Assembly (NCBI GenBank): GCA_030591685.1
Contig: JAUVAX010000004.1
Coordinates: 1 to 40,229 of the forward strand
Direction: 5' to 3'
DNA: 40,229 nt
Source: Pseudobdellovibrionaceae bacterium
GTDB lineage: Bacteria; Bdellovibrionota; Bdellovibrionia; Bdellovibrionales; UBA1609
Shown here: piece by piece, positions 1 through 37,877 of the stretch
How the letters are laid out: each line of letters opens with the position of its first letter
How positions within the stretch are numbered: the stretch's first letter is position 1
Position numbers and translations under genes: made by a program
Notes under the pieces: generated by a model
Seen by the model: only the letters and a program-made list of their open reading frames with translations
Told to the model about the DNA's origin: nothing
Database searches by the model: none

Positions 1-1100
1 AAAACGCCATCTGACTGAGGTATTAAGCCCTGTAGCTTATCAATGAATGAAACTTCTGAGTTTGAATACTCCCCTAAGGAATCACTCAGTAATCGAGCAC
101 ACTGATGATCAATGGCCTTTACCTGAGTTAAACTCTCATGGGTCAAGCTCTCTAAAGGCAACTCATTTATATGAGAAATAGCTGTAGGCGGCTCATTTAT
201 AAAACTTAAACCTGTGAACTGAGTGTCACTAAAGTTCAATACGGGTAATTTTGAGGTTTCTAAGTCTCTCCAAAACCTCACCGTAGGCACCCCGCCAATT
301 CTTATGACTCCATCAATTAAGTTTTTATTTTGCAACGCCTTTAATGAAACCTCGCCACCTTTTAACGAAAACTCTTTTAACGAATACACATTCGAATGAG
401 CCTCAACATATACAGGGATTTGAATTTGATTTAATGTGCCCTTTATTTTTTCAGCCTGGCGTTCACTTAGTGAAGATAAAATCACAATGGGTTTTTTAAC
501 CCTGTTTTTAAACCGTTCAAAGGTTTCTCTTACCTCAGCTGTGGACTCAACAAAGTCTAAATGTGCGGCCTTCCATTCGATGACAGGTTTTGAAAAGTTT
601 ATTTTCGCAACCTCTCCCTCAAGCAAAGGCTCAGAAAAGCATACATTCACATGAAGTGGGCTTTTAAGATTTTTTATCAAATCTAGTCCGGCCAAGCCCT
701 CATTAATATCAATATCTAAACAAGAGGCAAAGTGTGAAAACATACCCACTTGATTTGTACTTTGCGGGGCCCCGCTGCCCCTAAAATTTTTGGGGCGATC
801 GGCCGTTAGAACGATCAATGGATGCTCGCTATGGAAAGCCTCCATTACGGGCGGGAGCAGGTTTCCCCCTGCTGTCCCTGAGGTCGTTACAACACAAACC
901 GGACGACCCTGTTTTTTTATTCTCCCTAGAGCAAAAAAACCTGCCGAACCCTCTTCGAAAAAAGAATAACAACGAACTCCTTTGCTTTCAGATAGTGCTT
1001 TAATCAAGGGTGCGTTTCTAGCGCCAGCACAAAGCACGAACTCTTTAACGCCTAGGCGAACTAAGTTTTTTATGATCTCTAGGCTGAAATTTAAATTCAT
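1..1100 (-). CDS. menD: SEPHCHC synthase MenD (3' end runs off the window)
   Basis: Not in the ORF track because there is no stop in the window. Manual translation from ATG at 1100: MNLNFSLEIIKNLVRLGVKEFVLCAGARNAPL...FEEGSAGFFALG...VVTTSGTAGGNLLP...LTADRP...GSGAPQSTNQVGMF...PLHVNVCFSEPL. These are MenD motifs. ATGA overlap with the menF stop. Confidence 0.93.
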   Translation of the reverse strand, partial: MNLNFSLEIIKNLVRLGVKEFVLCAGARNAPLIKALSESKGVRCYSFFEEGSAGFFALGRIKKQGRPVCVVTTSGTAGGNLLPPVMEAFHSEHPLIVLTADRPKNFRGSGAPQSTNQVGMFSHFASCLDIDINEGLAGLDLIKNLKSPLHVNVCFSEPLLEGEVAKINFSKPVIEWKAAHLDFVESTAEVRETFERFKNRVKKPIVILSSLSERQAEKIKGTLNQIQIPVYVEAHSNVYSLKEFSLKGGEVSLKALQNKNLIDGVIRIGGVPTVRFWRDLETSKLPVLNFSDTQFTGLSFINEPPTAISHINELPLESLTHESLTQVKAIDHQCARLLSDSLGEYSNSEVSFIDKLQGLIPQSDGV

Positions 1101-2197
1101 AGTCCTAAACTTTTTTTAACAGCATCTCTTTTGTTTTGTAGCTCTTGCCACTCGTCTTCAAGTTGGCTTTGGGGCACAACGCCACTGCCTGAAAATAAGT
1201 ATGTGCTCTTATCAAACCACTGGATATTTCTAATGGCGACCAAGCAAAAATTAAGTTCATTTTTAATTTTAATGCCAAAAGGCGCGCCGAAACGCTTTCT
1301 TAATTTAGAGGACTCTTGGCCCATTAAAACCTTTAAAGCTAATTTTTGGGGCTCACCCCCCAGTGCCGGCGTGGGGTGCATAACACTCACGGCCTGTTCA
1401 AAAGTAATTGGGGATTTAAGGGGCACATGAATATCTGCTTTTAAATGTGTTAAATCTCCGATAACCCACTGTTTAGTTTCGCCTCTCTGCACATCACCAA
1501 ACTGCGAAAAGGTTTTTTGTAATCTGTCGGCGACGACTTCGTGTTCAAAAACCTGCTTTGGGTCATCAAGTAATGACGTTTTGTTAGAGCTCAGCTTTGT
1601 ACCTGCTAAAGCCATTGTGCTCAGCTGAGTAGAATTTAAATTAAATAAAACCTCAGGGGTCACCCCCATAATGCCTGACTGTTCAGACCAAAAACCATAG
1701 GGATATGAGTTTTCATGACTTGAAAGTAACCGGTGGGAGAACCTTCTTATTTGCTCCCCTGTGGGGGTCTCATCAGTTGACTCCCAAGCAAGAGGGACCA
1801 ATTTTTTAAGCTCTCCAGCTTTAAATAGTTCTTTTGTTTGCATAAAATCAGCTGTAAACAAGTTTTTATCAGCTGGGCTCCAACGCCAGTCGGCCACCTT
1901 GAGGCCCGAAAGGCCACCTGAGCCTAAACTCGCTAATTTTGCTATTTCTGAGAACGAACGCGCCTGGGGGTTGGCCTGAGTCTCTAGGATTTTTTGAAAC
2001 TGACCCGTTGTGTACACCGCGTTGTTTTCAAAAGACGCCCAGTTAGATTTATTTTCCTTAAAAAAATCAGGTACATAGAAGCCTATCTCGTCTTCACGCA
2101 TAGATTCTTTAGGCTCCAACAGGCCCCATGAGACCAACCATTGGTCCTCAGAAAACCTTACAAAAGCCCCTGATTTTACAAACTCATCACAATTCAT
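1097..2197 (-). CDS. menF: Isochorismate synthase (chorismate-binding enzyme)
   Basis: Motifs TPEVL, TMALAGT, K..FEHEVV, HPTPALGG, VAIRN, SGSGVV..S..EDEWQEL..K. Coupled to menD. Start placed at the ATG of MNCDEF (2197); the ORF track extends to 2254. Confidence 0.85.
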   Translation of the reverse strand: MNCDEFVKSGAFVRFSEDQWLVSWGLLEPKESMREDEIGFYVPDFFKENKSNWASFENNAVYTTGQFQKILETQANPQARSFSEIAKLASLGSGGLSGLKVADWRWSPADKNLFTADFMQTKELFKAGELKKLVPLAWESTDETPTGEQIRRFSHRLLSSHENSYPYGFWSEQSGIMGVTPEVLFNLNSTQLSTMALAGTKLSSNKTSLLDDPKQVFEHEVVADRLQKTFSQFGDVQRGETKQWVIGDLTHLKADIHVPLKSPITFEQAVSVMHPTPALGGEPQKLALKVLMGQESSKLRKRFGAPFGIKIKNELNFCLVAIRNIQWFDKSTYLFSGSGVVPQSQLEDEWQELQNKRDAVKKSLGL

Positions 2198-2312
2198 AGC
2201 TCTCACATATATAAACAGATAATAAAAAACATAAAAACAGTAGAGAATTACCAAACTTTACGTTAATTTCCCACTGATTTGTTTCAGTTCTTGTTTTAAT
2301 TTTGAGGTATCA

Positions 2313-3107
2313 ATGAAGACAACCCCTGTCAAAATTGCCAATATAACTATTGGTGGCCCCGAGTTTACGGTTATTGCCGGGCCCTGCTCTGTGGAGTCTC
2401 AGGAGCAGTTCTCCTCCACAGGCCTTGCGGTTAAAAAAAGTGGTGCCAGCCTTTTAAGGGGCGGGATTTTTAAGCTTCGTACACGGCCTGAGTCCTTTCA
2501 AGGGCTTGGATCCAGTGCTTTTAGCATGGCAAAGGAAATTAAAAGTCAGCTTGGCATGGGCTTTATTAGCGAAGTCACTGACCCCAGGCAAATTGGAGAT
2601 CTTGATGATGTTGTGGATGCCTTTCAGGTGGGCTCTAGAAACATGCACAACTATGAGCTGTTAAAAGAACTCGGCAAAACAGATAAGCCCATTGTTTTAA
2701 AAAGAGGCCTTTCAGGGCTGATTAAAGAGTGGCTCCATGCTGCTGAATATATTTTAAGTCAGGGAAACGAACAAATAGTTCTCTGCGAGCGCGGCATTCG
2801 CACCTTTGAAACCGCCACTAGAAACACCTTTGATCTCAACGCTGTTGCTTACATTAAAGAGAACACCCCCTTTCCGATCATTGCAGACCCCTCTCATGCC
2901 ACTGGTAAATCTAGCTTTGTTACACCACTGTCCTTAGCGGCTGCCGCTGCAGGGGCTGATGGATTAATGATCGAAGTGCACCCAAACCCTGCTGACGCCA
3001 AGTCGGACGGGCCTCAATCTCTTAATTTTAATGAGTTTAATTTATTAATGACTCAACTTGAAAGAGTCTTAGAAAGCCTCGATCGAAAGCTTGGTAAACT
3101 CATATGA
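2313..3107 (+). CDS. aroF: DAHP synthase, type I-beta, catalytic barrel only
   Basis: IAGPCSVE, LLRGGIFKLRT, QVGSRNM, LKRG, LCERGIRTFE, DPSHATG, IEVHP, SDG. 264 aa with no ACT or chorismate mutase extension. Confidence 0.92.
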   Translation: MKTTPVKIANITIGGPEFTVIAGPCSVESQEQFSSTGLAVKKSGASLLRGGIFKLRTRPESFQGLGSSAFSMAKEIKSQLGMGFISEVTDPRQIGDLDDVVDAFQVGSRNMHNYELLKELGKTDKPIVLKRGLSGLIKEWLHAAEYILSQGNEQIVLCERGIRTFETATRNTFDLNAVAYIKENTPFPIIADPSHATGKSSFVTPLSLAAAAAGADGLMIEVHPNPADAKSDGPQSLNFNEFNLLMTQLERVLESLDRKLGKLI

Positions 3108-3844
3108 GCCTCAACACAGAAAATACTTCAAAAAGCCAAAAAAAAGGGCCTAACCCAGAGGACATAAAAAACTTATTTAACTCTATCTCTAAAACCTACG
3201 ATAAAACCAACGATATAATTACAATGGGTTTTGTAAGGCCTTGGAGAAAAAAAATGATCTCTCACTCCGGGGCAAAATCGGGAGATAAGGTTTTAGACTG
3301 CGCCACTGGCACAGGTGACTTAGCCTTTGAATTTAAAAAGGTTGTTGGCCCCACGGGCACTGTTTTAGGCACTGATTTTTGTAAAGGGATGCTTGAAGAA
3401 GGCCCTAAAAAAGCGAAGCTTTTAAACTTAGATGTTCAATTTGAATTTGCCGATGCCACCTGCTTACAGTACGAAGATAACTCATTTGATATTACTTCCA
3501 TCGGATACGGCATTCGAAACGTCAGCGACCCGGTAAAAGCACTGTGCGAAATGGCCCGAGTTACAAAACCGGGTGGCACAGTGATTGTGCTTGAAACCGG
3601 CGACACTAAAAACCCTGTTCTTCAGCCCTTTATAAATATTTACTTTAAGCACATCGTCCCACGATTAGGGGGGTGGACAAGTGGTAATCGCCCCGCTTAT
3701 GAGTATTTAAATAAATCGTCTAACCACTTTCCGAGTAAAAATGATTTTTTAAATCTCATGAATCAGACAGGTCAGCTACAAGGCCTCTCCTGCAAAACAC
3801 TCATGGGCGGTGCTAGTTTTATTTACAAAGGGACGGTCAACTAA
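3104..3844 (+). CDS. menG: Demethylmenaquinone C-methyltransferase (UbiE/MenG)
   Basis: F.SI...YD..ND, VLDCATGTGD SAM motif, YGIRNV, AYEYL..S. ATGA overlap with aroF. Confidence 0.9.
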   Translation: MSLNTENTSKSQKKGPNPEDIKNLFNSISKTYDKTNDIITMGFVRPWRKKMISHSGAKSGDKVLDCATGTGDLAFEFKKVVGPTGTVLGTDFCKGMLEEGPKKAKLLNLDVQFEFADATCLQYEDNSFDITSIGYGIRNVSDPVKALCEMARVTKPGGTVIVLETGDTKNPVLQPFINIYFKHIVPRLGGWTSGNRPAYEYLNKSSNHFPSKNDFLNLMNQTGQLQGLSCKTLMGGASFIYKGTVN

Positions 3845-4521: not shown

Positions 4522-5565
4522 TCAAGTACCCGTACACCTGCTTAGACGGTCTTTGAGGGTAAAATCAGCGAGAACAAGCCAGGTCATGGCCTCTAAAACA
4601 CTTATAGCTCTTGGTACTATACAGGGGTCATGGCGCCCTTTTTTGGCAACGTCTAAAACACTCGAAGTGGGCTTAAAGCTCACGCGCATTTGTAGGGTCT
4701 CACCGGTGGTGATGCCCCCACGAATGCCCCCGTAATTGCTGGCCTCACCGGAGTGAAACTCCGTGCCCTCAGCTTTGACAGCATCAAACCCTTGGCCCAA
4801 ATCTACACCATTTGTTGCACCAATGCTTAAGTAGGCTTGCGCTAAAACTGCTTTAATTTTATTAAACACTGGCTCACCTAAATTACTCGGCGGGTTTTTA
4901 ATAATTACCTGAGCGAGCCCCCCATAACTTTGCCCCTGAGCCTTTGCTTTTAACAGTAACTCTTCCACCTGCTTTGACTTATCTTTTATGGGGATGCGGA
5001 CAAGAGAGTTATAAATATCAGAAGGGGTCGCTTTATCAACGATACTCTCGACTTCTTTTTGAGATAATTTCAACTCACCCACCTGCGAGCAAAAACTTAA
5101 AACCGATATGTCGGGGTAAAGCTGTTTGACCATCATTTTTGCAACCGACCCAGCCATAACTCTCGAAACGGTCTCACGGCCTGAAGAGCGACCTCCCCCG
5201 CGGTAATCAGTGTGCAGGTATTTGCTCAACCAAACATCATCAGCATGGCCAGGGCGTGGGCTTTTTTTAATTTCATTATAATCTTCAGAGCGTTGGTCTT
5301 TGTTGTTTACAATAATCGCAATGGGTGTACCTAATGTTTTGCCCTCAAACACACCACTTAGTACCTGGGGGCTGTCGGGCTCGTTTCGCCCCGAGACGAC
5401 TTCACTTTGACCCGGTCGCCTTTGGCGTAAGTCCTTTTCAAGAAGGCTTATGTCAAAATTCACCCCACTGGGGCATCCGTCAATGACGGCCCCTAAAGAG
5501 GGGCCGTGGCTCTCACCAAAAGTCATAACACTGAATAAATCACCAAATACGTTGTTCATACTCAT
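4522..5565 (-). CDS. aroC: Chorismate synthase
   Basis: TFGESHG, RRPGQS, GTPI, RPGHAD, GGGRSSGRET, GGIRGGIT, FKPTSS, GRHDPC. Confidence 0.97.
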   Translation of the reverse strand: MSMNNVFGDLFSVMTFGESHGPSLGAVIDGCPSGVNFDISLLEKDLRQRRPGQSEVVSGRNEPDSPQVLSGVFEGKTLGTPIAIIVNNKDQRSEDYNEIKKSPRPGHADDVWLSKYLHTDYRGGGRSSGRETVSRVMAGSVAKMMVKQLYPDISVLSFCSQVGELKLSQKEVESIVDKATPSDIYNSLVRIPIKDKSKQVEELLLKAKAQGQSYGGLAQVIIKNPPSNLGEPVFNKIKAVLAQAYLSIGATNGVDLGQGFDAVKAEGTEFHSGEASNYGGIRGGITTGETLQMRVSFKPTSSVLDVAKKGRHDPCIVPRAISVLEAMTWLVLADFTLKDRLSRCTGT

Positions 5566-10466: not shown

Positions 10467-10668
10467 ACCACTAATAGGCGACAATTTACAATAAGTAGTG
10501 CTGCTTGAATCTGTGAAAAGATAAAGGGCTAGCCTTGTATAAAACAGTCTGTTTTTTTAACACAGATCCTGGATCGAACAGGCGCAAGACACGAGCTTTA
10601 TGTCTAGGCTTTTTTATGTTTGAATATTATTTCATTTTTCTACAATTAATTACTATATAATATAAATT

Positions 10669-12252: not shown

Positions 12253-12632
12253 GCAGTAAGTTTTTTTTAAGTTTTCTCGGTGTGATTTTGTTTTCATGTA
12301 TAGGCGCATCAAAAGGGCTTGTGAATTTTGAGGTTGTTCATGGCGACCTAGTCTCAAAAATTACTATTGATAAAAACAAAGGTTCACAACATATAATATT
12401 TCAAAATAACCGAGGGGCATACGTTAAAAATGAAATGTCTAAAAAAAATTACAACTATATTATAAAATCAATTAATGAGCTCAAGGGCACCCCAAATGAT
12501 GTTAAATTTTGCCATAGATTTCATGTAGAGGTTAAGTATGCCGGCAAAAAAAGAATCGGATGCATTGGCTCAAAAAGTAAATTTGCACGAGAACTCACTC
12601 AACTTTTAAGATTGATTAATATTTTAATTTAA
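12249..12632 (+). CDS. Small putative lipoprotein/exported protein coupled to the peptidase
   Basis: ATGA overlap with the peptidase stop. Hydrophobic N-terminus with ILFSC lipobox-like motif; one further Cys pair. Confidence 0.7.
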   Translation: MSSKFFLSFLGVILFSCIGASKGLVNFEVVHGDLVSKITIDKNKGSQHIIFQNNRGAYVKNEMSKKNYNYIIKSINELKGTPNDVKFCHRFHVEVKYAGKKRIGCIGSKSKFARELTQLLRLINILI

Positions 12633-13860: not shown

Positions 13861-14328
13861 TTAAGGGTTTTTTATAAAAGAGCTCTTGCATGATTCTGAA
13901 TAAATCCCTGGGAGTTTTTTAAACGGGCTATTACTTTCTGACTGATAAGAATCCTGAACCTTTTTATCATCACAAGAGAGCGCCTCTAGATTAATTAGAC
14001 AGGCCTGGGAGTCCTCAGCATTCACTCTTAGCTCTCCCATATCCTCTGCATTGACCACATCAGACAAATACCTATAGTCAGAGGTCTTTAACCCAAATGC
14101 TGGAGTTAGCTTCTTAATCGTAAATATAGAGCTCATGCACTCAGCGGTACTTAAGTTAAGATGACAACGACTTAACTTAATGCAAGTATTTGAAGCCACT
14201 TGAGCTGAGAAGAGCCTCGGTTGACCATCCTGGTTACTATTATCGGTAGCAGCACTTGGGTTGCCAGTGTCTGTGCCACAGCCTGACAGAGCGAACATAA
14301 GTATAGTAAAAAAATAAAATCTACTCAC
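13861..14328 (-). CDS. Cys-rich lipoprotein co-transcribed with the TIGR02147 gene
   Basis: GTG start after AGAGGGGG, overlapping the upstream stop by 8 nt. Lipobox LSGC followed by GTDTGNP; six further Cys. Confidence 0.8.
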   Translation of the reverse strand: MSRFYFFTILMFALSGCGTDTGNPSAATDNSNQDGQPRLFSAQVASNTCIKLSRCHLNLSTAECMSSIFTIKKLTPAFGLKTSDYRYLSDVVNAEDMGELRVNAEDSQACLINLEALSCDDKKVQDSYQSESNSPFKKLPGIYSESCKSSFIKNP

Positions 14329-15196
14329 TGGCCCCCCTCTCTTTTTTTGCCGCGAGCTGACCGGCTAGAGGGAATAGCTGAAAGTTTAACTGATAAACAA
14401 CAGTTGCGTCTTTTGAGTCATCAGTAATAGATAGAATTTCATTTCTAAATTCTTTCATAAGGGTTTTAATTTTTTCTACAGTTTCCCTTGAACATGATAT
14501 GCATGTACCTGAAATCTCTCTATCCATATGGTGAATATCATCTATAGAGTCTTTTGCTTTACTAATCATGTCCTTGTGGTATTGAGAAATGAGCGTTGAC
14601 ACCACGCTATCTCCTGGTCGAACATTTTTATAGGTTTGCTTGAGAAGACCCTCTTTATCTCTAAAAATAAACCCGATGCTTATTAGATCCCGTAAGGCCT
14701 GCTCGACTTCACTTGGGCTTACAGCATGGTCAAACTGTTCAGAAATCCAACCAGAATCTTCTTGAAAGTCCTTTGTCGCAACTAACTCACGAAGCGGTAT
14801 ATAGTACCACCTAGCATAGTACTTCATTTCAGTTTGCCTAATAGGATGTATTTTTTTAAAGGTTCTAGATTTTAAAATTCGTTTAGCATTTAGCGTTTTT
14901 TCAGTGGCGTTTTTTGATTGACAAAACTGAACCAAATTTTTAAAAAACTCAGACTCTAGTTTCTCTAATTTTAAGGCTTCACTAAACCTCTCTATGCTTT
15001 CGTCTGATATGTTTCGCTTTCCCTCAATAACAAGTTTCAAAAAATTAGGCGATGCAAAACCCGCTCTTCTTGAAAAGTATCGATATGAGAAATAATTCGT
15101 TGTACCTTTATAGTATTCATACAGGTCCCCTAAGAACACTCGATAATCATCGTATTCAAAAATACTGGGTTTAGTTAAATCGAACTTAAGGGCCAT
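14321..15196 (-). CDS. TIGR02147/DUF4423 family protein (putative HTH regulator)
   Basis: SIFEYDDYRVFL, FSYRYFSRRAGFASPNFLKLVIEGKRNIS, YYARWYYIPLREL, YHKDMI..A..SI, REISG, VYQLNFQLFPL. Confidence 0.9.
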   Translation of the reverse strand: MALKFDLTKPSIFEYDDYRVFLGDLYEYYKGTTNYFSYRYFSRRAGFASPNFLKLVIEGKRNISDESIERFSEALKLEKLESEFFKNLVQFCQSKNATEKTLNAKRILKSRTFKKIHPIRQTEMKYYARWYYIPLRELVATKDFQEDSGWISEQFDHAVSPSEVEQALRDLISIGFIFRDKEGLLKQTYKNVRPGDSVVSTLISQYHKDMISKAKDSIDDIHHMDREISGTCISCSRETVEKIKTLMKEFRNEILSITDDSKDATVVYQLNFQLFPLAGQLAAKKERGASE

Positions 15197-15385: not shown

Positions 15386-15946
15386 TCATTTACCCTTAAT
15401 TGCAGGTTTAAATGTGCCCTCAATAGAAATTGTCTTTGATTCATCAAATGGGACTATAAATTTACCTAGGTGTTTAAGGAGCCGGCTCTTTGATGTTATT
15501 TCACTAGTTCCTTGATTACAGTAAATGACAATTCCAACTAGTTCTCCGCCTAAGTCATGAGCCTCAAGAAAAATGGTATTCACATACCATGACATCTCAG
15601 ATAGTTCATATGAAGTACTCAATGCGGGTATAGTTCTTAAGCTCCCGCTCTTATACTTTGAAGGCATGTGCCCTTGAGAGAAGGTAATCGCACAAAAATC
15701 TATGAGTTCTTGAGACTGATTTGTTATGTTTTTACCTTCAAAAAAATAATTCCAACTTTCATTAATAATTTTACCATTACGGCCCCTTGTTGGCTGCAGA
15801 TCAATGTCCTTTATCACAGAAAACCTATTACGCTCTGCAAGTCCTGGATAATCTAAACACCCTTTGTTACAGCTTTCACTTGTCTTCGACCAGCCCAGCG
15901 AACTATAAATTAATATAAACAAAGTATAAAAAAATAAATTTTTCAT
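15386..15946 (-). CDS. Secreted hypothetical protein (186 aa)
   Basis: SD AAGGGAAG, signal peptide MKNLFFYTLFILIYSSLGWS, four Cys. Confidence 0.75.
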   Translation of the reverse strand: MKNLFFYTLFILIYSSLGWSKTSESCNKGCLDYPGLAERNRFSVIKDIDLQPTRGRNGKIINESWNYFFEGKNITNQSQELIDFCAITFSQGHMPSKYKSGSLRTIPALSTSYELSEMSWYVNTIFLEAHDLGGELVGIVIYCNQGTSEITSKSRLLKHLGKFIVPFDESKTISIEGTFKPAIKGK

Positions 15947-16098
15947 AATAACTTCCCTTTTTGATTTTAAAATTAGTTGTAACGCTTTTTAATTTTTTTC
16001 ATTGTCTCTTGAGATTTTCTGTATAACGACTCAATCTTAGAAATATTAAGTTCTAATCGTTTAATATTTTTCTTCAATGGATTTATAGCTCCCGGCAA

Positions 16099-17361
16099 TC
16101 ATGGGTAAACTCTAAAATCAAATGGCAGCATTTTTTCAAAGGCTGATTTACTCTCGTCATCTGAGCTGTTATCTACAAAGTATTGTTTAGTTAAGATCTC
16201 AACTCCTTCATATTCCTTCAGGTATACTTCATAAACAGCATAATCTTGGCAAAAATAAGGCCACTGGGTCATCGCAATACTCATTTCATAGCCTCTTTTA
16301 AAACTTTGGGCACCTAAAATAGGCAGGTCATCGACAGCTATTCCCCGAGATGTTAAAGCAAATACTTCACCTTTTACGGATTCTATATCTCGGCAAATAT
16401 TCGTTATATCATCTAGAGTCACATGGCCCTTTTTTTCAGCTGCAGATATATACTTATCTAATGATTCTATCTGTCGCCTAAATGCTGTAATTAACTCATT
16501 TTTAGATTTGCCAATTAAGTTTTTGTCCTGAAGAAACCCCTTTAACCTCTCTATCAAACTATTTCTTTTGGCCTTCATGGCCATTAACTTGTCAATAGGG
16601 CGATATTGCTCAGGAATATTTGCGTACTCACGGCTTTGGTTAACTGAGCCTTTCAACCTAACGAGGCTTTTATTGAGCCGATATAAAATTCCCTCAATAT
16701 CTCCCCCTGCGAGTAAATCATTTATTGTGTTCGGCCCGATAAAGTTCCACATAGCAATTTCAATAGCTCTTGCCTCCTCTTCATTGCCCCCGACTTCGTG
16801 AACATATTCATGTACAATTAAACCTACAAGTGCTGGGTCAACATCTAAAGAATTTAATTTTTCTTCTAACCTGTTTGCACTTATACAAATTTTACCATCA
16901 GCCTCTATTCCATTGCCGGCATCTTTGGCTCCGTGGTTAGTGGGGCAGGCTCCCTTAAACTTTACATCTATAAAGGCTGAGTCTTTCTCTATGATATCAA
17001 AAATATACCTTGGGTTATTTTCAGGAAACAGTTTATTCATAGCGCTTTGAATGTTCTCTATTAGTGCAAGCTTTTCTTTATTTGTATAATTATAAAGTGA
17101 ACCGGCATCATCCTGATCAATATCATCAGAGTTTAAATAATCATCAAAGCTTATATGTTTTTTATGGAACTCAACTACGTTTAGTATAAATCCAAGAATT
17201 TGATGTATCTGTGGCGCGCGGTGAGCAATATATGCCTGTGTCGCACTAGGGATCTCTGAGTTTGTCCCGCCATAGTCGCCGGGGCCAGAAATAGCAAGCA
17301 TGGGGGCACTCAGCAAAGCGAGCACCAGTAAAATGTGGGACCAAGTTAGTTTTTTCATCAT
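16099..17361 (-). CDS. Secreted protein with HEXXH motif (possible zincin)
   Basis: SD AAGGAG, signal peptide then Gly-rich GPGDYGG. KICIS...LVGLIVHEYVHEVGGNEEEA; helical C-terminal half. Confidence 0.75.
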   Translation of the reverse strand: MMKKLTWSHILLVLALLSAPMLAISGPGDYGGTNSEIPSATQAYIAHRAPQIHQILGFILNVVEFHKKHISFDDYLNSDDIDQDDAGSLYNYTNKEKLALIENIQSAMNKLFPENNPRYIFDIIEKDSAFIDVKFKGACPTNHGAKDAGNGIEADGKICISANRLEEKLNSLDVDPALVGLIVHEYVHEVGGNEEEARAIEIAMWNFIGPNTINDLLAGGDIEGILYRLNKSLVRLKGSVNQSREYANIPEQYRPIDKLMAMKAKRNSLIERLKGFLQDKNLIGKSKNELITAFRRQIESLDKYISAAEKKGHVTLDDITNICRDIESVKGEVFALTSRGIAVDDLPILGAQSFKRGYEMSIAMTQWPYFCQDYAVYEVYLKEYEGVEILTKQYFVDNSSDDESKSAFEKMLPFDFRVYP

Positions 17362-17500: not shown

Positions 17501-18309
17501 ATGGATCTATATAGCTTTAGTAATTACAAAGAGTTCACCTTAAAGTGGATTAAATCTCAGCCTAAAAAGGGCTATGGGCAGCTCCGAAAACTAGCACAAC
17601 ACTTAGACATTAATGCCGTAATTGTCACTCAGGTCTTCAACGGCCCCCGTAACCTGTCTGTTGAGCAGGCCTTTGATGCCACATCATTTTTTGGCCTCAA
17701 TGAGTTAGAGTCCGATTACTACTTACTACTCGTTCAACATGAAAGGGCCGGCAATTATCGCCTGCAAGATAATTTTGCAAAAAAAATTAAGGAGCTAAAA
17801 ACTAAAGCTACTAAAATAAAGTCTCGACTCCCCAAAAATAAGCAAGAGCTCTCGTTTGAAACAAAGGCCCTTTTTTACTCTGACTGGTTCTATAGTGGCA
17901 TTCGATTGATAACAGCAATTGATGGTTTTAACTCCCCTGAGGCCATTGCAAATTATTTTTACCTACCTGTAAGAAAAGTTCGAGAGGTTTTAGATTTTTT
18001 AACTGAAAACAACCTCTGTATTGAGAAAAAAACAAATACTCCATCTTAAACAACTCAACGCATGTTGATGCAAGGTCGCCTCTTGTTTCAAGGCACCATA
18101 AAAATTGGCGACAAAAATCTTCAGAAAAATCAGAGGCCCAAGATCAAAATGACTTATTTTTTACAGGCCCCATGGTCATCGACCAAAAAACTATGGAGGA
18201 TATTAAAGCTAACATATTGTTGCTCATCCAAGAATCTACAAAAAAATCCTCCAAAGCCCCTTGTCAAATGTTGGCTTGCTTAAATATAGATTTTTTTAGC
18301 GTAAAATAA
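17501..18309 (+). pseudogene. DUF4423/TIGR02147-like regulator with a 1-nt frameshift in an A7 run (18026-18032)
   Basis: Frame 1 (YKEF...PKKGYGQLRKLA...FYSDWFYSGIRL) stops at 18049. The -1 frame continues NKYSILNNSTHVDARSPLVSRHHKNWRQ...LFFTGPMVID...LACLNIDFFSVK* (TAA at 18307-18309), a typical DUF4423 C-terminus. A8 restores a 269-aa ORF. Confidence 0.85.
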
Positions 18310-18440: not shown

Positions 18441-20234
18441 CTAAAACGAATTAAGTTTTAAGTAGTACTCTTGTTGGGCTGTGGCTTGGGTTTCAAACAT
18501 TTTAAGGCCTGAGGTGTAATGAGCCTTTGTTTTTTGGGCGTACTCTATCCCAGGTGAGTCGGCTGTATAATTGAGGTCAATGACCTTACTTGGGCGCCAG
18601 TTCTCAGGGGGCCAGTGACAGCCGCTCATTTGAGATCGCCCTATGGCCCAAATAATTATATCGGGGCTAAACGTGGGGGCGTTTTGTGCACCACCTCTTA
18701 ATTGCCCCGTTCGGGCCGAATAGGCGCACGCTTGTGGTAGCTCCCCTAAAATAGCGGACAAAGTACCCCCGCCACCCCAAACCGCCACAGAGCGACCCTT
18801 CGCTCCTGAGAGCAAAACCTTAAGCCCCTCTACATCTGTGTTTGTAGCAAAGCTACCAGTCCTTGTAAATACAGCGGTGTTTACTGACTTTAACTTTTTA
18901 CTCACAGGTGTTAAGCCACATCCGGCCTCTGATAAAAGGTCGTACATTTTATTTTTTAAAGGCGAGGTGACGGCTAAAAAACTTAAACCCATTTCTTTTA
19001 ATTCGCTTAAGAGATCAATACTTAATTCGTCCTTTGCACACTGAATGGCAACAACAGAAGTATCGCGATTTTCAAAAAATATTTTATGCTCAATAGGAGT
19101 ACGACTGTGAAAAATAGGGTCCCCAATCACGGCACCAAAAGAAAAGTGATTGGGTTTAAAGTTAATAATATCAAAAAATGTGGGCTGATCTAAAGCTGAG
19201 CCTTGACCCTCGCGCATGTAATTTAAGGGCATTTTCATAGAGAATATTTTACGATACCAATTAAAGCGCCCCTCTTGACTGCGGGGGAGAAAACTTCGAC
19301 TCTCCCTCTCTTTAAACCACCATTTGTGCCAAAAAAGCAACGAACTTAAGTTCTCTAAAAGTAACGAGAGCTTTATTTGAAACCCCTTTTTCTCAAACCG
19401 CTCTAATTTTTTAATTAACTGCTCCGGGGTCAGATCGTCAAGCTTATGAAGGGACAAGAAACCCTTTTTCTTAAAAGGCGGCTCTCCTAGCTCAAGGGCC
19501 CAGTCATATTTATAACCCTGTTTATTAATTAACTCGCATAAAAATGAGTTTTCTTTTCGCACACTAAGCAGCACACTCTCTTTTGGTATTTTTTTAAGGC
19601 AGTCTTCTATTTGCCCCCTAGTGAGTAAGTCATCGCGCAGCTCAAAATATTTTATATTTAAATCTAAGTACACCTTAAAGCGGTCAAAGTTTTTACTTTT
19701 TAACATTTCAGGCAACACAGTTATACTAAAGCTGGCATCGGTGTGTGTTTTTTTAAGCCCTAAATTATAAATCAACAGTGGGGCAAAGTTGTAATCGCTC
19801 TCAGGTAATGTGATTTGAAGGTCTGAGGTGTTCTTATACCTTAACTCTCTTTCGTTAAAACGAGACTGGTACTCCTCTAGGGCTGAGACGTTTGGGTTCA
19901 AGCGGGGTCTGTTTAAAAATATTCGACCCATTTTATCTGTCGGCCTTCTTACCCAAATAACAATAAAGTCGTCAGGTATTTCAGTCTGAAACCCAGCACC
20001 ACAAGATATTATTATGTTTTCACGGCCCACCGCCAAGCCGTGAAAGGCCTCGCTTTCTAGTTTTCTAAACTCTGCCTCTCCTGAGTTTAGAAAAATGTCT
20101 TCTATTTTTATATTATTTATGCTTTCAATTTCAGCGTCTAAGTCAAAACAAGTAAAACCTTCAAGTTCACTTTTTAATTGATTTACAAGAGTTGTTTTAC
20201 CCACCCCCCTATGGCCAATCAAAGCTAGTTTCAT
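18441..20234 (-). CDS. Trifunctional shikimate kinase / type I 3-dehydroquinase / shikimate dehydrogenase (AroK-AroD-AroE)
   Basis: AroK: GHRGVGKTT, DLDAEIE, GEAEFRKLE, RPRL. AroD-I-like: FELRDD, LSVR, YDW, LSLH, IKL, SALDQ. AroE: VIGDPIFHSRTP..H, VTSPLK, SVNT, NTDVEG, GGGGT, DLNY, GLKMFETQA..Q. Confidence 0.85.
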   Translation of the reverse strand: MKLALIGHRGVGKTTLVNQLKSELEGFTCFDLDAEIESINNIKIEDIFLNSGEAEFRKLESEAFHGLAVGRENIIISCGAGFQTEIPDDFIVIWVRRPTDKMGRIFLNRPRLNPNVSALEEYQSRFNERELRYKNTSDLQITLPESDYNFAPLLIYNLGLKKTHTDASFSITVLPEMLKSKNFDRFKVYLDLNIKYFELRDDLLTRGQIEDCLKKIPKESVLLSVRKENSFLCELINKQGYKYDWALELGEPPFKKKGFLSLHKLDDLTPEQLIKKLERFEKKGFQIKLSLLLENLSSLLFWHKWWFKERESRSFLPRSQEGRFNWYRKIFSMKMPLNYMREGQGSALDQPTFFDIINFKPNHFSFGAVIGDPIFHSRTPIEHKIFFENRDTSVVAIQCAKDELSIDLLSELKEMGLSFLAVTSPLKNKMYDLLSEAGCGLTPVSKKLKSVNTAVFTRTGSFATNTDVEGLKVLLSGAKGRSVAVWGGGGTLSAILGELPQACAYSARTGQLRGGAQNAPTFSPDIIIWAIGRSQMSGCHWPPENWRPSKVIDLNYTADSPGIEYAQKTKAHYTSGLKMFETQATAQQEYYLKLNSF

Positions 20235-21427
20235 ACACTAACACCAATGGATTGGAAAAACTCAGGGAAGCTTTTGTTAACCACCTCAGGGTCCACGAGA
20301 TCAATTCGAACTCCGCCAGTCATTAGTAACCCCGCCGCCATCGCTAGGCGGTGATCCTCATCAGGGTCAAATTTAAAAGTATCTGTTGAAAATTGCGTGG
20401 GGCCTTGGATTTCCATACCGTCGTCTAAAATTTTGATATTAGCCCCTGCTAGCCTGAGAAGTTCTGCTGTTTTTTTTATTCGATCCGACTCTTTATGTTT
20501 TAAATGAGCGGCCCCGTAAAGGCGACTTCTGCCATGAGCAAAACAACAAAGACTCGCTAGCACTGGGAACAAATCTGGTGAGTCATTTAAATCCACCTCA
20601 ACGGCCTTAAGTTCGCCTGATTTTTTAACAGTTAACTTTTGACTTGAGGTACTCACACCTACCCCCATCCTTGTTAAAATATTAACAAACACACTGTCGG
20701 GCTGTAGGCTTTTTTCAGGGATGCCTAGTAAAATAGCCTCACCAGAAATGGCCGCCACACTCGCCACTGCAAAAGCACTACTCATATCGGGCTCAATAGA
20801 GATTTTATGAGTATTGATCTGCTGCTTAGGGGGGACATATATTTCATTTTCTCGCCAAGTCAAATTCATACCCAGCTGTTTTAATAGCTTTACAGTCATT
20901 TTCAAATAAGACTTAGAGTTTAAATCAGCAGGCAATGACATATAAATTTCAAAGGGCAAACTCCATGCACTTAAAAGTACGCCCGAGGCAAATTGACTAG
21001 AAACATTAGAGGTCAAGTGCAGGGCATCGCCCATAAGGTGCCAACCATCTGTTTTAATAATGAGCCGGTCCTCTTTAAGTTCACAAATAGACCCCAACTG
21101 CCCCAGAACTGTAATTAATGGCCCCTGGGGCCTAGAAAAAAGTCGACGACTGCCCTTAAGAACAAACACGCCCTTTTCTTTAGCCAAACGAGGGGCTAAG
21201 AACCTTAGTACCGTCCCTGCGTGGCCACAGTCAAATTCAGCCTCCAACAAAGGGGCTCCCTGAGCTTTTTTAAAATTTAAACCTTTAACGTTTTTTTCCA
21301 TTAAAACAACATCGTCACACTGGGACTTACCGTCGACCTCTAACTCAGGAAAGTGGCTTTGAACAATCAAAGCCCTGTTCATTAACGACTTACTTGCCGG
21401 AAGACGTCCCATAAAAGAAAAACTCAT
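20231..21427 (-). CDS. aroA: EPSP synthase
   Basis: ASKS..NRALI, GHAGT..RF, SSQFASG, EPDMSSA, KESDR, DHRLAMA, KSFPEF. The ATG at 21427 forms an ATGA overlap with the aroB stop. Confidence 0.95.
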   Translation of the reverse strand: MSFSFMGRLPASKSLMNRALIVQSHFPELEVDGKSQCDDVVLMEKNVKGLNFKKAQGAPLLEAEFDCGHAGTVLRFLAPRLAKEKGVFVLKGSRRLFSRPQGPLITVLGQLGSICELKEDRLIIKTDGWHLMGDALHLTSNVSSQFASGVLLSAWSLPFEIYMSLPADLNSKSYLKMTVKLLKQLGMNLTWRENEIYVPPKQQINTHKISIEPDMSSAFAVASVAAISGEAILLGIPEKSLQPDSVFVNILTRMGVGVSTSSQKLTVKKSGELKAVEVDLNDSPDLFPVLASLCCFAHGRSRLYGAAHLKHKESDRIKKTAELLRLAGANIKILDDGMEIQGPTQFSTDTFKFDPDEDHRLAMAAGLLMTGGVRIDLVDPEVVNKSFPEFFQSIGVSV

Positions 21428-22476
21428 TTTTTGACCCACTTTGTTTTTTGAGCCGCCGCCAATATTGACTTAAAGCTCACTGGCTTCACCAACACTTGCC
21501 CAGGCGATTTTAACAAAACAAAATTGACCCTTGTTTTAGAGGTCACTTTTTTGTCCGTCTTTATAATTTTTAAAAACTCTGCCGCAGGCATTTTAGATTT
21601 ACCCATAAATGTTAAATTAAATTTAGAGCTCATAAAGTCGACTATGTTTTTATAACTTTTTTGACTGAGCACCCCTTCGCGATTAGACACCTCAAGAGCC
21701 ACCATTAACCCCTGCATAACGGCCTCACCGTGGGGGCAGCGATAATAACTTTCAATGACATGCCCTACTGTGTGCCCTAAATTTAAAACCTCACGGAGGC
21801 CTTTTAGCTCATAGGGGTCCTTTAAAACAACTTTATATTTAATATCTATGGCCTGTGGTAAGAACTTCCACAGTTGCTTTTCACCAGACAATGAACTTTT
21901 ACTTACCGCCTCAAATAATTTTTTATTTAACAAACAATATTTAGAAAACTCACCCATAGCCGATTGGGCTAATGCTTTGGGCTGAGTCTGTAATAAGCTT
22001 TTAACAATAAATACTTTTTTTGCTGGATAAAAAGTACCCACCTGATTTTTATGTCCGGTTAGGTTTAATGCACTTTTACCGCCGTGAGCAGAGTCTAAAG
22101 CCGCCAGCCATGTCGAGGGGATATGTATTAACCCAACGCCTCTTTTATAAATGCTTGCTAAAAACCCCGCAAAGTCACCTGTGCTACCTCCACCAATGGC
22201 GACAAAACAAATATTCTTTCTTGAGACTGGTGGTAGTAACTTTGAAATTTTACAAAGCTCAGCCTCGGCCGAAGAAAATGACTTTAAACCCTCGCCCGCT
22301 TTTAATTTAATTGTAAATTCATACCTTTTAAGCCATGTATTAAAAAACTCGTGTTTGTTTAAAACAGAATCATACAATAATACTGGGGTTTTAAAGCCTG
22401 TGAGTTTTAGTAGGTCACTTTTAGAGGGTAATTTGTTTTTATACTCAACTTGAGATGAAAAATGAACTAAAGCCAT
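21424..22476 (-). CDS. aroB: 3-dehydroquinate synthase
   Basis: GEGLKS, GGGSTGDFAGF..SIYKRGV, IPSTWLA.LDS..GGK, KNQVGTF, LNLGHTVGHVIE, HGEAV, DKK. Confidence 0.95.
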   Translation of the reverse strand: MALVHFSSQVEYKNKLPSKSDLLKLTGFKTPVLLYDSVLNKHEFFNTWLKRYEFTIKLKAGEGLKSFSSAEAELCKISKLLPPVSRKNICFVAIGGGSTGDFAGFLASIYKRGVGLIHIPSTWLAALDSAHGGKSALNLTGHKNQVGTFYPAKKVFIVKSLLQTQPKALAQSAMGEFSKYCLLNKKLFEAVSKSSLSGEKQLWKFLPQAIDIKYKVVLKDPYELKGLREVLNLGHTVGHVIESYYRCPHGEAVMQGLMVALEVSNREGVLSQKSYKNIVDFMSSKFNLTFMGKSKMPAAEFLKIIKTDKKVTSKTRVNFVLLKSPGQVLVKPVSFKSILAAAQKTKWVKK

Positions 22477-22483: not shown

Positions 22484-23338
22484 TTACCTTAGCTTTGGAT
22501 CTAATATATCCCTCAACCCATCGCCTAATATATTAAACGTTAACACAGCAATTAGTATACACACGCCAGGCATTGTAACAAGCCAGGGCGCGGTTTCTAT
22601 ATAAGACCGAGCATCGGCAAGCATGGTCCCCCACTCAGAGGTGGGCGCCTGGGCCCCAAGGCCTAAAAACCCCAGTGCTGCAATATTTAATATACCGTCA
22701 CTAAACCCCAGGGTGGCCTGTACAATAATGGGGGCTGCAACGTTTGGTAAAATATTAATAAACACTTGTCTTAAGTGACTGGCCCCAAAGTTTTGGCCGG
22801 CGACGACATAAAGAGCATGTTTTTCAGCCATAACACTCGCCCTAACAATTCTAATAAATGCAGGCAATGCCATAACACTCACCGCAATCACCCCGTTTAT
22901 TAGACTTGGGCCTAATATTGAAACAATCACAATAGCTAACAAAATACTCGGCATGGACATTAATACGTCCACTATACGCATTATTAATGAGTCCACCCAG
23001 CCCCCTGCATAGCCAGAGATCACCCCCAAAACAAGCCCAACACTTAAAGCTAAAATAACAACAAGCGCCCCTACCCCTAAAGACACACGAGCCCCGTAAA
23101 TAAGCCGAGATAATTGATCTCGACCTAAATCGTCAGTGCCTAGTAAAAATTTAAACTCACCGCCGTCTAACCAAAAAGGTGGGAGTTTTAATTGCCCATC
23201 AAAAATTTGTGTTGGGTCAAAAGGCGCAATAAATGGAGCAAAGAGGGCAAAAAAACATAATACACCCAGAAGGGCTAAACTAATTTTAGCGCCAGTGTTT
23301 CGTTTTAATTTTTTTAAGAACTCTTTATACTGGGTCAT
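22484..23338 (-). CDS. dppC: Dipeptide ABC transporter permease DppC
   Basis: LLGTDDLGRD.LSRLIYGARVSL, ILPNV.APIIVQAT, GFLGLGAQAPTSEWG, GDGLRD.LDPK. Confidence 0.92.
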   Translation of the reverse strand: MTQYKEFLKKLKRNTGAKISLALLGVLCFFALFAPFIAPFDPTQIFDGQLKLPPFWLDGGEFKFLLGTDDLGRDQLSRLIYGARVSLGVGALVVILALSVGLVLGVISGYAGGWVDSLIMRIVDVLMSMPSILLAIVIVSILGPSLINGVIAVSVMALPAFIRIVRASVMAEKHALYVVAGQNFGASHLRQVFINILPNVAAPIIVQATLGFSDGILNIAALGFLGLGAQAPTSEWGTMLADARSYIETAPWLVTMPGVCILIAVLTFNILGDGLRDILDPKLR

Positions 23339-23341
23339 TAA

Positions 23342-24352
23342 CTATGAGTCCCTCAACTTTGGGTCAATCCATACATATAATAAATCAACAATCATGTTCA
23401 CAAAAATAACTACAAAGGCAATCAACATGACCCCACCCTGAATCACCGGGTAATCCCTAGAGGTTACAGAGGCCACAATCCAGCGCCCTATACCCGGCCA
23501 GGCAAAAATAGTTTCAGTTAAAATAGCACCGGTTAAAATAGTCCCAAACATTAAACCAATCACGGTAACAACGGGTATTAATGCGTTTCTAAAAGCATGC
23601 TTAATCACAATGGTGTAAAAGCTTAAACCCTTAGCCTTAGCCGTTCTAATGTAATCTTTTTTTAAAACCTCTAATAAACCAGATCTTGTCATTCGAGCAA
23701 TGGCCGCCATGGGGATGGTCCCCAATACAACCGAGGGCAAAATGAGGTGTTTCAGCGAACTCACAAAAGCCCCCCACCCTTCAGGGCTTTTTAAACTATC
23801 AATCAACATAAAGCCCGTAACAGGGTCCACATCAAAAAAAGGGCTAATTCGACCAGAGACAGGGGTCCACCCTAGGCCCACTGAAAAAACCAATATAAGC
23901 ATTAAGCCCCACCAAAAAATAGGCATTGAATAACCCACAAGAGCCCCACTCATAAGAAAATAGTCAAAAAATGTTTTTCTTTTAATTGCCGCAACAACAC
24001 CCAATGGGATGCCTATGATAATAGACCAAAACATAGCTAAAAACCCAAGTTCAACAGTGGCCGGAAAGCGGCTTATAAACTCATCAAAAACAGGTTTTTT
24101 AGAAACTATCGACACCCCAAAGTCACCCTTTGCAGCATTAGATAAAAAATAAAAATACTGCTCTATAACGGGCTTATCGAGACCTAATTTTTGTTGAATA
24201 TCAATATACATTTCTTTTGAAACACCCCGTTCACCAAGTAAGAGCAAAATAGGGTCACCAGGCACTAAGCGAATTAATGAAAAAGCTAATATGGACACCC
24301 CAATAAGAGTTGGGATGGCTATTAGAATTCTTTGCGCCACTATTTTAAACAC
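23342..24352 (-). CDS. dppB: Dipeptide ABC transporter permease DppB
   Basis: PGDP, RFPATVEL, SMPIFWWG, DYIRTAKAKGL, HAFRNALIP, RDYPVIQG. Confidence 0.93.
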   Translation of the reverse strand: MFKIVAQRILIAIPTLIGVSILAFSLIRLVPGDPILLLLGERGVSKEMYIDIQQKLGLDKPVIEQYFYFLSNAAKGDFGVSIVSKKPVFDEFISRFPATVELGFLAMFWSIIIGIPLGVVAAIKRKTFFDYFLMSGALVGYSMPIFWWGLMLILVFSVGLGWTPVSGRISPFFDVDPVTGFMLIDSLKSPEGWGAFVSSLKHLILPSVVLGTIPMAAIARMTRSGLLEVLKKDYIRTAKAKGLSFYTIVIKHAFRNALIPVVTVIGLMFGTILTGAILTETIFAWPGIGRWIVASVTSRDYPVIQGGVMLIAFVVIFVNMIVDLLYVWIDPKLRDS

Positions 24353-24354
24353 TT

Positions 24355-25944
24355 TTATTTAAACTCTATGGGGTAAAAGTTCTCTGTCCCCAGAGGCGAT
24401 TGTATATAACCATATACATTGCTTCTCATCGCCTTAAAAGTAATAGAGTGGGCAATGGGTACCCAAGGCAACTCCCTTTTAAAAATGACCTGAAGCTCTT
24501 TGTAAATTTTAGATCTTTGACCCACGTTAGAGACCTGCTTTGCTTTTATAATTAAAGCTGAAAATTTATTATTACACCATCTGGCTGCATTAGAGCCTGG
24601 CTCAACAGCGGCACAAGAGAGCAGAACACCTAAAAAATTATCGGGGTCACCATTGTCGCCCGTCCAACCCAACTGAACTAAATCATGCTCACCTTTATTG
24701 ATTTTAGCTAAATATGTAGGCCAATCATAAGTTACAAGGTTTACCTTTATACCCACTCTTGCTAAATCTGACTGCATGAGTTCGCCCATTTTTTTACCAT
24801 TAGGGTTGTAGGGCCTCGTTATTGGCAAAGTCCAAAGCGTTGTTTCAAAGCCCTTTGGGTAGCCGGCTTTTTTAAGCAAAGCTTTTGCTTTTTTTATATT
24901 ATACTCATACTTTCGTAAACCCGAATGATACCCCCAAATAACCGGAGGCAGTGGGCTTTCAGCAACACTCGCATAACCAAGATATATGGCCTCTATATAG
25001 GACTTTCTATTAAGGGCATGGTAAATGGCCCTTCTCACAAGTAGTTTTTTAAATGGTATTTTTTGTGTGTTAAAGGCCAAATAGCCCACATTCATACCTG
25101 GTCTTTGTAGCAACTTAATTTTTTTATGAGCCCTCATGCCCTCTAAATCAGTGGGCGACGTTTGGCCTACAAAATGACATTCACCTGTTTTTAGCTTTTG
25201 AAACCTCACGTTGGCGTCTGGGGTGATTGCAAAAACCAATTTTTTAATTTTAGATGGACCTTCAAAATAGTTTTTATGACTTTCATAGCGAACAAGGGTG
25301 TCTTTAATATACCTTTTAAAAACAAAAGGCCCCGTCCCTATAGGCTCGTTATCAATTTTGTCTTTAGAGCCGGAAGCCTCTAACTGATCGGCGTATTCTT
25401 TAGAGAGTATGCTAGCAAAATCCATGGCAAGGTTAGCAATAAAAGGGGCTTCCTTTCTAGATAAAATAAACTTAACAGTGTAGTTATCGACCTTAATTAT
25501 ATCTTTAATTATTTTGTCCATCTCCATGGACTTAAAGTATTCATAAGTCCCACCACTAACTAAATGATAAGGGTGCGCCTCATCCCGTTGACGATTAAAG
25601 GTAAATAAAACATCATCTGCATTAAACTCCCTTGAAGGGGTAAAGTCTTTTGTTTGGTGAAACTTCACCCCACGGCGCAAGTAAAAGGAGTACTCTAAAC
25701 CATCATCAGAAATATCCCAGCTTTCAGCTAAAGAGGGCTTAACCTCAGTGGTGCCGGGCTTAAAGGCGATAAGACGGTTGTAAATAGGCTGTGAGCTGGC
25801 GTTAAAAGTAGCTCCATCGGTGGCCAGTTGAGGGTTAAATATACTAGGGCTTCCCTCAGCACAAAAAACAAAGGTCCCCTTGTTTTTTGCAGGGGTGCAG
25901 GCGGCCAAAACACAAAGAGTAATAATCCCAAAAAAATACTTCAA
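24355..25944 (-). CDS. dppA: Dipeptide ABC transporter substrate-binding lipoprotein DppA
   Basis: AGGAG SD, TTG start, lipobox LAAC. FCAEGSP..FNPQL, PIGTGPF, RPYNPN, GWTGDNGDPDNF. Confidence 0.93.
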   Translation of the reverse strand: MKYFFGIITLCVLAACTPAKNKGTFVFCAEGSPSIFNPQLATDGATFNASSQPIYNRLIAFKPGTTEVKPSLAESWDISDDGLEYSFYLRRGVKFHQTKDFTPSREFNADDVLFTFNRQRDEAHPYHLVSGGTYEYFKSMEMDKIIKDIIKVDNYTVKFILSRKEAPFIANLAMDFASILSKEYADQLEASGSKDKIDNEPIGTGPFVFKRYIKDTLVRYESHKNYFEGPSKIKKLVFAITPDANVRFQKLKTGECHFVGQTSPTDLEGMRAHKKIKLLQRPGMNVGYLAFNTQKIPFKKLLVRRAIYHALNRKSYIEAIYLGYASVAESPLPPVIWGYHSGLRKYEYNIKKAKALLKKAGYPKGFETTLWTLPITRPYNPNGKKMGELMQSDLARVGIKVNLVTYDWPTYLAKINKGEHDLVQLGWTGDNGDPDNFLGVLLSCAAVEPGSNAARWCNNKFSALIIKAKQVSNVGQRSKIYKELQVIFKRELPWVPIAHSITFKAMRSNVYGYIQSPLGTENFYPIEFK

Positions 25945-36222: not shown

Positions 36223-36282
36223 GACGGGTAAAGTAGCAAGTAACCGTAAGCGTTGCTACGAATTCAACGACTTGAAAGGAAA

Positions 36283-37784: not shown

Positions 37785-37877
37785 GTTCCCTCCTAGCTTT
37801 GCGTTTTAACAAACACAGAGGCTAACATACAAGCTCTCAAAGGGCAGTTGTTTTTTTAAGATCAACTTTATAATTAT

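Follow-up and report, generated by a model that had tools for sequence, protein, structure and literature searches.

A repeatedly fusing chorismate operon of Bdellovibrionia, probably a cousin or parallel of the eukaryotic AROM enzyme

We analysed a window of 40,229 nucleotides from a Pseudobdellovibrionaceae bacterium (the whole stretch studied here, positions 1 to 40,229 of contig JAUVAX010000004.1, assembly GCA_030591685.1) and focus on an operon for the middle part of the shikimate pathway. Three open reading frames (ORFs) on the minus strand encode 3-dehydroquinate (DHQ) synthase (aroB, 350 residues), 5-enolpyruvylshikimate-3-phosphate (EPSP) synthase (aroA, 398 residues) and a triple fusion of shikimate kinase, 3-dehydroquinate dehydratase (DHQase) and shikimate dehydrogenase (aroK-aroD-aroE, 597 residues), which sum to 1345 residues (Table 1). 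In the following, B, A, K, D and E stand for the five domains, a slash marks a boundary between genes, and a hyphen joins domains that are fused or, in a gene order, adjacent. An excerpt of PMC6851490 gives the domain order of the pentafunctional AROM enzyme as DHQ synthase, EPSP synthase, shikimate kinase, DHQase and shikimate dehydrogenase. The original prediction described the operon as a “proto-AROM”. Its three genes with two ATGA overlaps, the last gene being a triple fusion, agree with the ORFs and the junction sequences, and its domain identities and AROM order agree with the Pfam and structure matches. We favor, with moderate confidence, a different interpretation of their origin: this is a coupled chorismate operon whose genes fuse repeatedly, a cousin or parallel of AROM and not its source.

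Stop codons at both junctions mean that the five activities do not lie on one polypeptide here, and since the B/A/K-D-E split is kept in 34 of 53 related loci, it is not an assembly error. One base added before each ATG brings the frames into register and yields 1345 residues, as had been proposed. However, by a crude ORF count, 104 of the 705 close co-directional ORF pairs of the genome have an in-frame ATGA overlap (151 of 705 an NTGA overlap), so that being one base from fusion holds for many operons. What stands out is not the overlap itself but its conservation at the A/K junction, which is an NTGA overlap in 43 of the 53 loci, while the B/A junction is one in 20 (the related genomes are not independent of each other). 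The aroB gene ends with GTC AAA AAA TGA (window 21424-21435), where slipping by -1 at the stop would carry translation on into aroA. Because the run (AAAAAA before TGA) is present at only one of 61 aroB stops, slippage as a conserved mechanism was rejected. Scans for promoters and terminators gave hits at chance level only. The 398 residues of AroA are counted from the ATG; the ORF finder had used a longer GTG start at 21439. Residues K13, R18, R99, Q145, D285, K312, E313, R316, H359, R360 and K385 of AroA are invariant in 41 family members. AroB scores 229 bits against TIGR01357, under the cut-off of 305, and carries a lineage-specific DSAHGGK motif, the AROM counterpart of which is DSSIGGK.

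In the 597-residue protein, Pfam recognizes SKI at residues 9-142 and Shikimate_dh_N at residues 369-453, and no type I DHQase (PF01487) in the middle domain. PF01487 also had no match in five of five genomes of a sister clade, which belongs to the phylum of a Labilithrix metagenome-assembled genome (MAG); we take this phylum to be Myxococcota. The models of the kinase and dehydrogenase domains match shikimate kinase (PDB-code: 4y0a, Z 19.1) and AroE (PDB-code: 1nyt, Z 20.5), and S377, T423, K427, N452, D467, Y556 and Q583 are invariant in the dehydrogenase. Across 120 homologues the middle domain has the invariant residues E198, S261, H263, K288, R328, D349 and Q350, and R200, D202 and R226 are kept in at least 90%. 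A profile of 43 related middle domains returned the type I DHQase 2ocz as its first match (E=0.0011); in this alignment the motifs around His and Lys are in register, H263 and K288 being the corresponding residues; a His/Lys dyad of type I DHQases is described in an excerpt of PMC9074039. When the AlphaFold2 model of the domain alone (predicted local distance difference test score, pLDDT, 93.5) was compared with 48,161 chains, the top 11 were type I DHQases (Z 11.8-14.9) and the next other fold had Z 11.6. Six-frame searches of the genome, which is rated 100% complete and 0.72% contaminated, revealed no other type I DHQase and no type II enzyme over the cut-off. The profile match to 2ocz and the fold ranking both agree with the type I class named in the original prediction. 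Judged by this model and these alignments, the assignment of the middle domain as a type I dehydroquinase is strong, and the domain presumably has the corresponding activity.

The AlphaFold2 model of the complete K-D-E protein has a mean pLDDT of 95.1 and a predicted template modelling score (pTM) of 0.92. AROM chains come first by Foldseek E-value, yet their superposition is off by 18-19 Å, whereas residues 165-596 of the model superimpose on the Arabidopsis DHQase-shikimate dehydrogenase (DHQ-SDH) with an r.m.s.d. (root mean square deviation) of 3.6-3.8 Å over 406-412 residues. The predicted D-E packing is that of plant DHQ-SDH, not that of AROM. This argues against an AROM-like assembly, with the caveats that the packing is a prediction and that Aro1 is flexible: the authors of the Candida Aro1 structure describe its domains, in an excerpt of PMC9074039, as flexible and largely autonomous.

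Of 8000 scored candidates, 780 are homologues of the triple fusion at E<=0.001; the best 120 of the 780 are all of similar length, and those with names are mostly Bdellovibrionales. The fusion is matched in 17 of 18 genomes of the same taxonomic family and in 35 of 35 genomes of the largest family of the order. Among the 53 non-duplicate genome loci, 34 are B/A/K-D-E, 8 are B/A-K-D-E, 6 are B/K-D-E and 5 have other layouts; because the eight B/A-K-D-E loci were chosen for their long frames, the set is not a random sample. Metagenome searches returned 31 loci, and 18 of the 21 that could be scored are B/A/K-D-E. This layout is the norm in the class Bdellovibrionia.

Each junction of AROM is fused somewhere in the family of operons found in Bdellovibrionia and in the Myxococcota-phylum clade. 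Four-domain A-K-D-E fusions occur in eight genomes (L032, L033, L034, L035, L052, L053, L054 and L055), always with aroB just upstream. The A-K fusion requires at least four changes on the FastTree of K-D-E, and its linkers are short (8-15 residues between the matched stretches). A search for long AroB proteins led to B-A fusions with the same DSAHGGK motif (P0335-P0337; frames of 732-781 residues), which were found in 10 of the 121 genomes from the phylum of the Labilithrix MAG (L305-L321). Four of the five B-A-fusion genomes tested also contain the divergent K-D-E fusion; it lies elsewhere or, at locus L309, directly downstream of B-A. No five-domain fusion of the family was present among nine matches of 1146-3270 residues (each a fungal AROM, judged by its name, cluster or sequence), in four long AroB matches, among 150 of 367 AroA places or in 21 metagenome loci, which is weak evidence of absence. 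A 1366-residue frame in one genome (G287) and frames of 1100-1436 residues in Acidobacteriota were considered as larger fusions and rejected as open-frame artefacts of GC-rich DNA, because aroB or aroA lies in another frame.

We propose that the operon is part of a fast-evolving family common to Bdellovibrionia and the Myxococcota-phylum clade, in which overlapping neighbors would fuse again and again, A-K-D-E at least four times and B-A in the sister clade. Because fusion is repeated within the family, AROM-like products are likely parallel outcomes, and the B-A-K-D-E gene order, which is present in several prokaryotic lineages, may have been their starting point.

How widespread this order is was seen when 185,579 species genomes were scanned with 37 diverse AROMs. 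Among the best 80 of about 600 matches there is one Acidobacteria MAG with B/A/K-D-E (L079, 5622-10381), and of 20 loci picked by hand from its order, 15 have the same layout (L285-L294, L296-L298, L303 and L304); neither an A-K nor a B-A fusion occurs in these 20 loci. Near-complete aro clusters with other orders are present in a Bacteroidia MAG (B-A-K-E-D; L131), a Dehalococcoidales MAG (B-D-E-K-A; L094) and a Woesearchaeote (B, D-E, A, K; L097). Within the best 80 loci, the AroA proteins of the Woesearchaeote (453 bits) and the Bacteroidia MAG (429 bits) score highest against the AROM profile.

To place the family relative to AROM we used FastTrees of 75-132 rows per domain and IQ-TREE trees (LG+C20) of 44-49 hand-picked rows; for AroA the quick tree was used. 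The longest AROM branches (e.g. P0230, P0237, P0294, P0299 and P0338) were left out, and the AROM rows were mostly taken as eukaryotic by assumption. For domains other than B the prokaryotic rows came from 50 genomes out of the 80 in the scan and from samples of two phyla; no plants were included and no row was named as Alphaproteobacteria or Actinomycetia. All trees are unrooted. All five domain trees unite the window's family with the Myxococcota-phylum clade in a single group, which has a long stem. A grouping of AROM with Bdellovibrionia without this sister clade was rejected by the approximately unbiased (AU) test at p=1e-10 (concatenation of 34 rows and 1386 columns, LG+G4), and direct descent of AROM from Bdellovibrionia is excluded as far as these trees go. 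In the B+A trees AROM is nested among Planctomycetes, Fibrobacter, Bacteroidia, Woesearchaeota, Nitrospinota and Desulfobulbaceae (Shimodaira-Hasegawa-like approximate likelihood ratio test, SH-aLRT, 97-98), with the window family outside this group; B+A favors this position of AROM over one beside the window's family by 31 log-likelihood units.

The mean identity to seven AROMs in B/A/K/D/E is 27/29/26/15/21% for the window; the Acidobacteria MAG reaches 39/35/27/22/29% and a planctomycete 39/41/25/23/28%. None of the prokaryotic sets sampled resembles AROM less than the window family does in B, D and E; in A the family ranks close to last, and in K it is on a par with the others. Since it is fast-evolving, low similarity alone is compatible with kinship. 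When the family was aligned profile to profile with fungal AROM, the barrel came out of register, and this alignment was not used. The proposal that the operon is a relative of the one that gave rise to AROM is weakened: AROM with Bdellovibrionia alone is rejected, the family is least AROM-like in three domains, and Acidobacteriota with the same layout have a higher AROM identity in four domains. For a possible bacterial origin of the K-D-E half of AROM, Acidobacteriota are at least as good a candidate as the Bdellovibrionia lineage.

Several results weigh against our interpretation of a parallel system. AROM as sister to Bdellovibrionia plus Myxococcota was rejected in no AU test, neither for single domains (p of 0.50 for B, 0.08 for A, 0.45 for K and 0.37 for E) nor for B+A (p=0.08) or the five-domain concatenation (p=0.43, LG+G4). 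The D tree joins AROM to this clade with weak support (76/51), AROM and the family come together in two quick K-D-E trees (92 and 84, with a long-branch warning), and 47% of 200 K-D-E bootstrap trees place AROM with the window family. A single clade of all K-D-E fusions costs only 0.43 log-likelihood units (p=0.47, not rejected). Furthermore, a G-x-R-G P-loop is common to the window-family kinases and most AROM kinases; it is also found in unfused kinases of Planctomycetes, Woesearchaeota, Nitrospinota and Desulfobulbaceae. To this extent the kinship suggested by the original prediction survives, as the family does not branch far from AROM in all five trees: no AU test rejects the pairing and the D tree shows it. 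Taken together, the trees lean against kinship with AROM for B-A and point both ways for K-D-E.

The best surviving alternative, although in our opinion an unlikely one, is a shared origin, in which bacteria acquired the K-D-E fusion, or the B-A-K-D-E operon as a whole, a single time and AROM, the Acidobacteriota operon and the Bdellovibrionia plus Myxococcota family are its descendants, the last being much accelerated and with its D-E packing remodelled. The same five-gene order and triple fusion in two other phyla and in AROM are consistent with this, as is the low cost of the single K-D-E clade. A tree with AROM and Acidobacteriota together scores better than the free K-D-E quick tree by 9.4 log-likelihood units, the better, careful K-D-E tree places AROM next to the pair of Acidobacteriota and Desulfobulbaceae (35/43, unsupported), and the K tree groups the kinases of AROM, the Woesearchaeote and Acidobacteriota, with the window family adjacent. 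However, support is low for all such groupings, and in the B and A trees Acidobacteriota, AROM and the window family stand at three separate places. Gene order is labile, as the three other clusters described above illustrate, E-K or D-E fusions are common, and the P-loop is shared with unfused kinases. That the shikimate kinase-DHQase-shikimate dehydrogenase half of AROM, perhaps even its whole order, came from a bacterial B/A/K-D-E operon surviving in Acidobacteriota, Bdellovibrionia and the Myxococcota-phylum clade is likewise an idea we hold only tentatively. If true, living bacteria would show all intermediates to AROM (B/A/K-D-E, B/A-K-D-E and B-A/K-D-E), and the triple fusion would be a bacterial and not a eukaryotic invention; Richards et al. 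reportedly considered the arom fusion in 2006 as a possible ancient eukaryotic innovation.

Could AroB, AroA and K-D-E form a putative stable, non-covalent AROM-like complex at 1:1:1? We regard this as doubtful. The A/K overlap kept in most loci and the repeated A-K fusion with its short linkers would fit such a complex, but in at least 6 of the 53 loci aroA does not adjoin the K-D-E gene, and B-A and K-D-E are on different contigs or far apart in four of four Myxococcota-phylum genomes of the test described above. The predicted D-E packing unlike that of AROM and the autonomy described for the Candida Aro1 domains also speak against it. A complex prediction for K-D-E with AroA scored 0.00, which is no answer and weighs neither way.

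Finally, it is improbable that, for each of the five domains, eukaryotic AROM has the stem lineage of the family as its specific donor or sister: although no domain rejects this, the D tree and nearly half of the K-D-E bootstrap trees show the adjacency and every AROM junction is fused somewhere in the family, the adjacency runs via very long stems that carry a long-branch warning, B+A favors another position for AROM, no sampled set is less similar to AROM in B, D and E, the family has derived traits absent from AROM (DSAHGGK and a shortened barrel that has no GG loop following the third strand), and the genome and metagenome matches examined contained no five-domain fusion of the family.

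Some observations on other systems were made along the way. In other Acidobacteriota (L239-L258 and L299-L302), D-E is followed by about 300 residues unmatched by aro profiles, in frames of about 830-880 residues. In Fibrobacter (L234, 1211-4255) the type I DHQase is the C-terminal end of a 1014-residue frame. Compact five-domain AROMs of 1406-1525 residues (P0279, P0280, P0338, P0246 and P0266) are single genes on metagenome contigs of up to 290 kilobases (kb) and branch with AROM; P0279, P0280 and P0338 are rich in Asn, Ile and Lys. Our guess is that their host is a protist or a giant virus. A scan of viral contigs for P0280 and a literature search on compact AROMs found nothing.

Returning to the window operon, the three overlapping genes with the five middle shikimate enzymes are likely translated as a coupled operon supplying chorismate. 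AroB would make dehydroquinate, which the barrel domain would dehydrate via a Schiff base on Lys288 with His263 as the base, by analogy with type I DHQases. The product would be reduced to shikimate by the neighboring dehydrogenase, which is predicted to pack on the barrel in the manner of plant DHQ-SDH. Phosphorylation of shikimate by the N-terminal kinase would follow, AroA would make EPSP and AroC would take over. Genes for the first and last steps of the pathway and two menaquinone-type genes lie in the same window (Table 1). In the set of 36 long related loci, 30 contain aroC, 12 menG, 10 the DAHP (3-deoxy-D-arabino-hept-2-ulosonate 7-phosphate) synthase gene and 8 the MenF-like gene. The menB gene is located elsewhere in the genome, outside the window, and prephenate dehydratase and TrpA were not found in the genome. 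Chorismate is likely used chiefly for menaquinone; a prephenate dehydrogenase-like match in the genome speaks against this, as chorismate may also feed tyrosine.

Upstream of the operon, on the same strand, dppA-dppB-dppC genes for a peptide ABC (ATP-binding cassette) transporter (window 22484-25944) end 7 bases before aroB, with no ATPase subunit in between. They are near the operon in just 2 of 36 related loci, so this upstream position is not conserved. Two DUF4423 proteins are encoded at window 14321-15196 and 17501-18049, the second being short (182 residues) and a weak match, and they flank ORFs without annotation at 15386-17361. Long ORFs without a Pfam match (667, 527, 351 and 777 residues) are found at window 8463-12632 and 36253-40211.

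Table 1. Genes, domains and junctions of the chorismate operon and pathway genes elsewhere in the window.
Feature	Position	Strand	Evidence
aroB, 3-dehydroquinate synthase, 350 residues	21424..22476	-	PF01761 E=1e-27, PF24621 E=1e-26
ATGA overlap, aroB stop / aroA start	21424..21427	-	read from sequence
aroA, EPSP synthase, 398 residues	20231..21427	-	PF00275 E=1e-62
ATGA overlap, aroA stop / aroK-D-E start; junction fused in relatives	20231..20234	-	sequence
aroK-aroD-aroE triple fusion, 597 residues	18441..20234	-	single ORF
Shikimate kinase domain, residues 1-160, P-loop GHRGVGKT	19755..20234	-	PF01202 E=1e-15
Divergent type I 3-dehydroquinate dehydratase domain (assigned), residues ~162-358	19161..19751	-	conserved columns, 2ocz alignment, fold
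Shikimate dehydrogenase domain, residues ~359-597	18444..19160	-	PF08501; TIGR00507 E=1e-19
aroC, chorismate synthase (step 7), 13 kb from operon	4522..5565	-	TIGR00033 over cut-off
DAHP synthase (step 1)	2313..3107	+	TIGR01361 over cut-off
MenG/UbiE-type methyltransferase	3104..3844	+	TIGR01934 over cut-off
Isochorismate-synthase-like protein (MenF-like)	1097..2254	-	TIGR00543 E=2e-44, under cut-off

A literature search, which covered few subscription journals, found no paper on these bacterial operons. Our analysis fills an annotation gap, because a class of predatory bacteria appears to be without a dehydroquinase when the domain is hidden in a protein labelled as shikimate kinase or dehydrogenase. 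It also provides a natural fusion series (B/A/K-D-E, B/A-K-D-E at least four times, B-A/K-D-E) for the passage from overlapping genes to multifunctional enzymes, and it makes the origin of AROM testable with named prokaryotic candidates.

Among known systems, the Acidobacteriota operon (L079 and relatives) has the three-gene layout and the triple fusion in common with the window; its domains, however, are canonical and detectable by Pfam, its K-D-E frame has 765-770 residues, and it is sister to the window family in no free tree. With type I AroD (PF01487; PDB-codes: 2egz, 2ocz and 1sfj) the middle domain shares the barrel fold (Z 14.9 to 2egz) and the aligned E-x-R-x-D, R, S-x-H and K motifs, whereas the window barrel is only about 195 residues long, is 13-20% identical and has no Pfam match. 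Plant DHQ-SDH (Arabidopsis; PDB-codes: 2gpt, 2o7s and 6bmb) and bacterial AroD-AroE fusions have the same D-E order, and the plant enzyme has the predicted interdomain geometry given above; the window protein differs by an additional N-terminal kinase, by a barrel too divergent for PF01487 and by an identity of about 19%. AROM/Aro1 of fungi and protists (PDB-codes: 6hqv, 7u5s, 7tbv and 5swv) is matched by the window operon in the order of all five domains, with the type I DHQase fourth, in having K-D-E on one chain, in the G-x-R-G P-loop and in the best Foldseek E-values. In contrast, the predicted domain packing of the window model departs from that of AROM, the AROM lid motif GQL reads DQP in the window barrel, K-D-E comprises 597 residues compared with about 700 in AROM, and the window has three genes where AROM has one.

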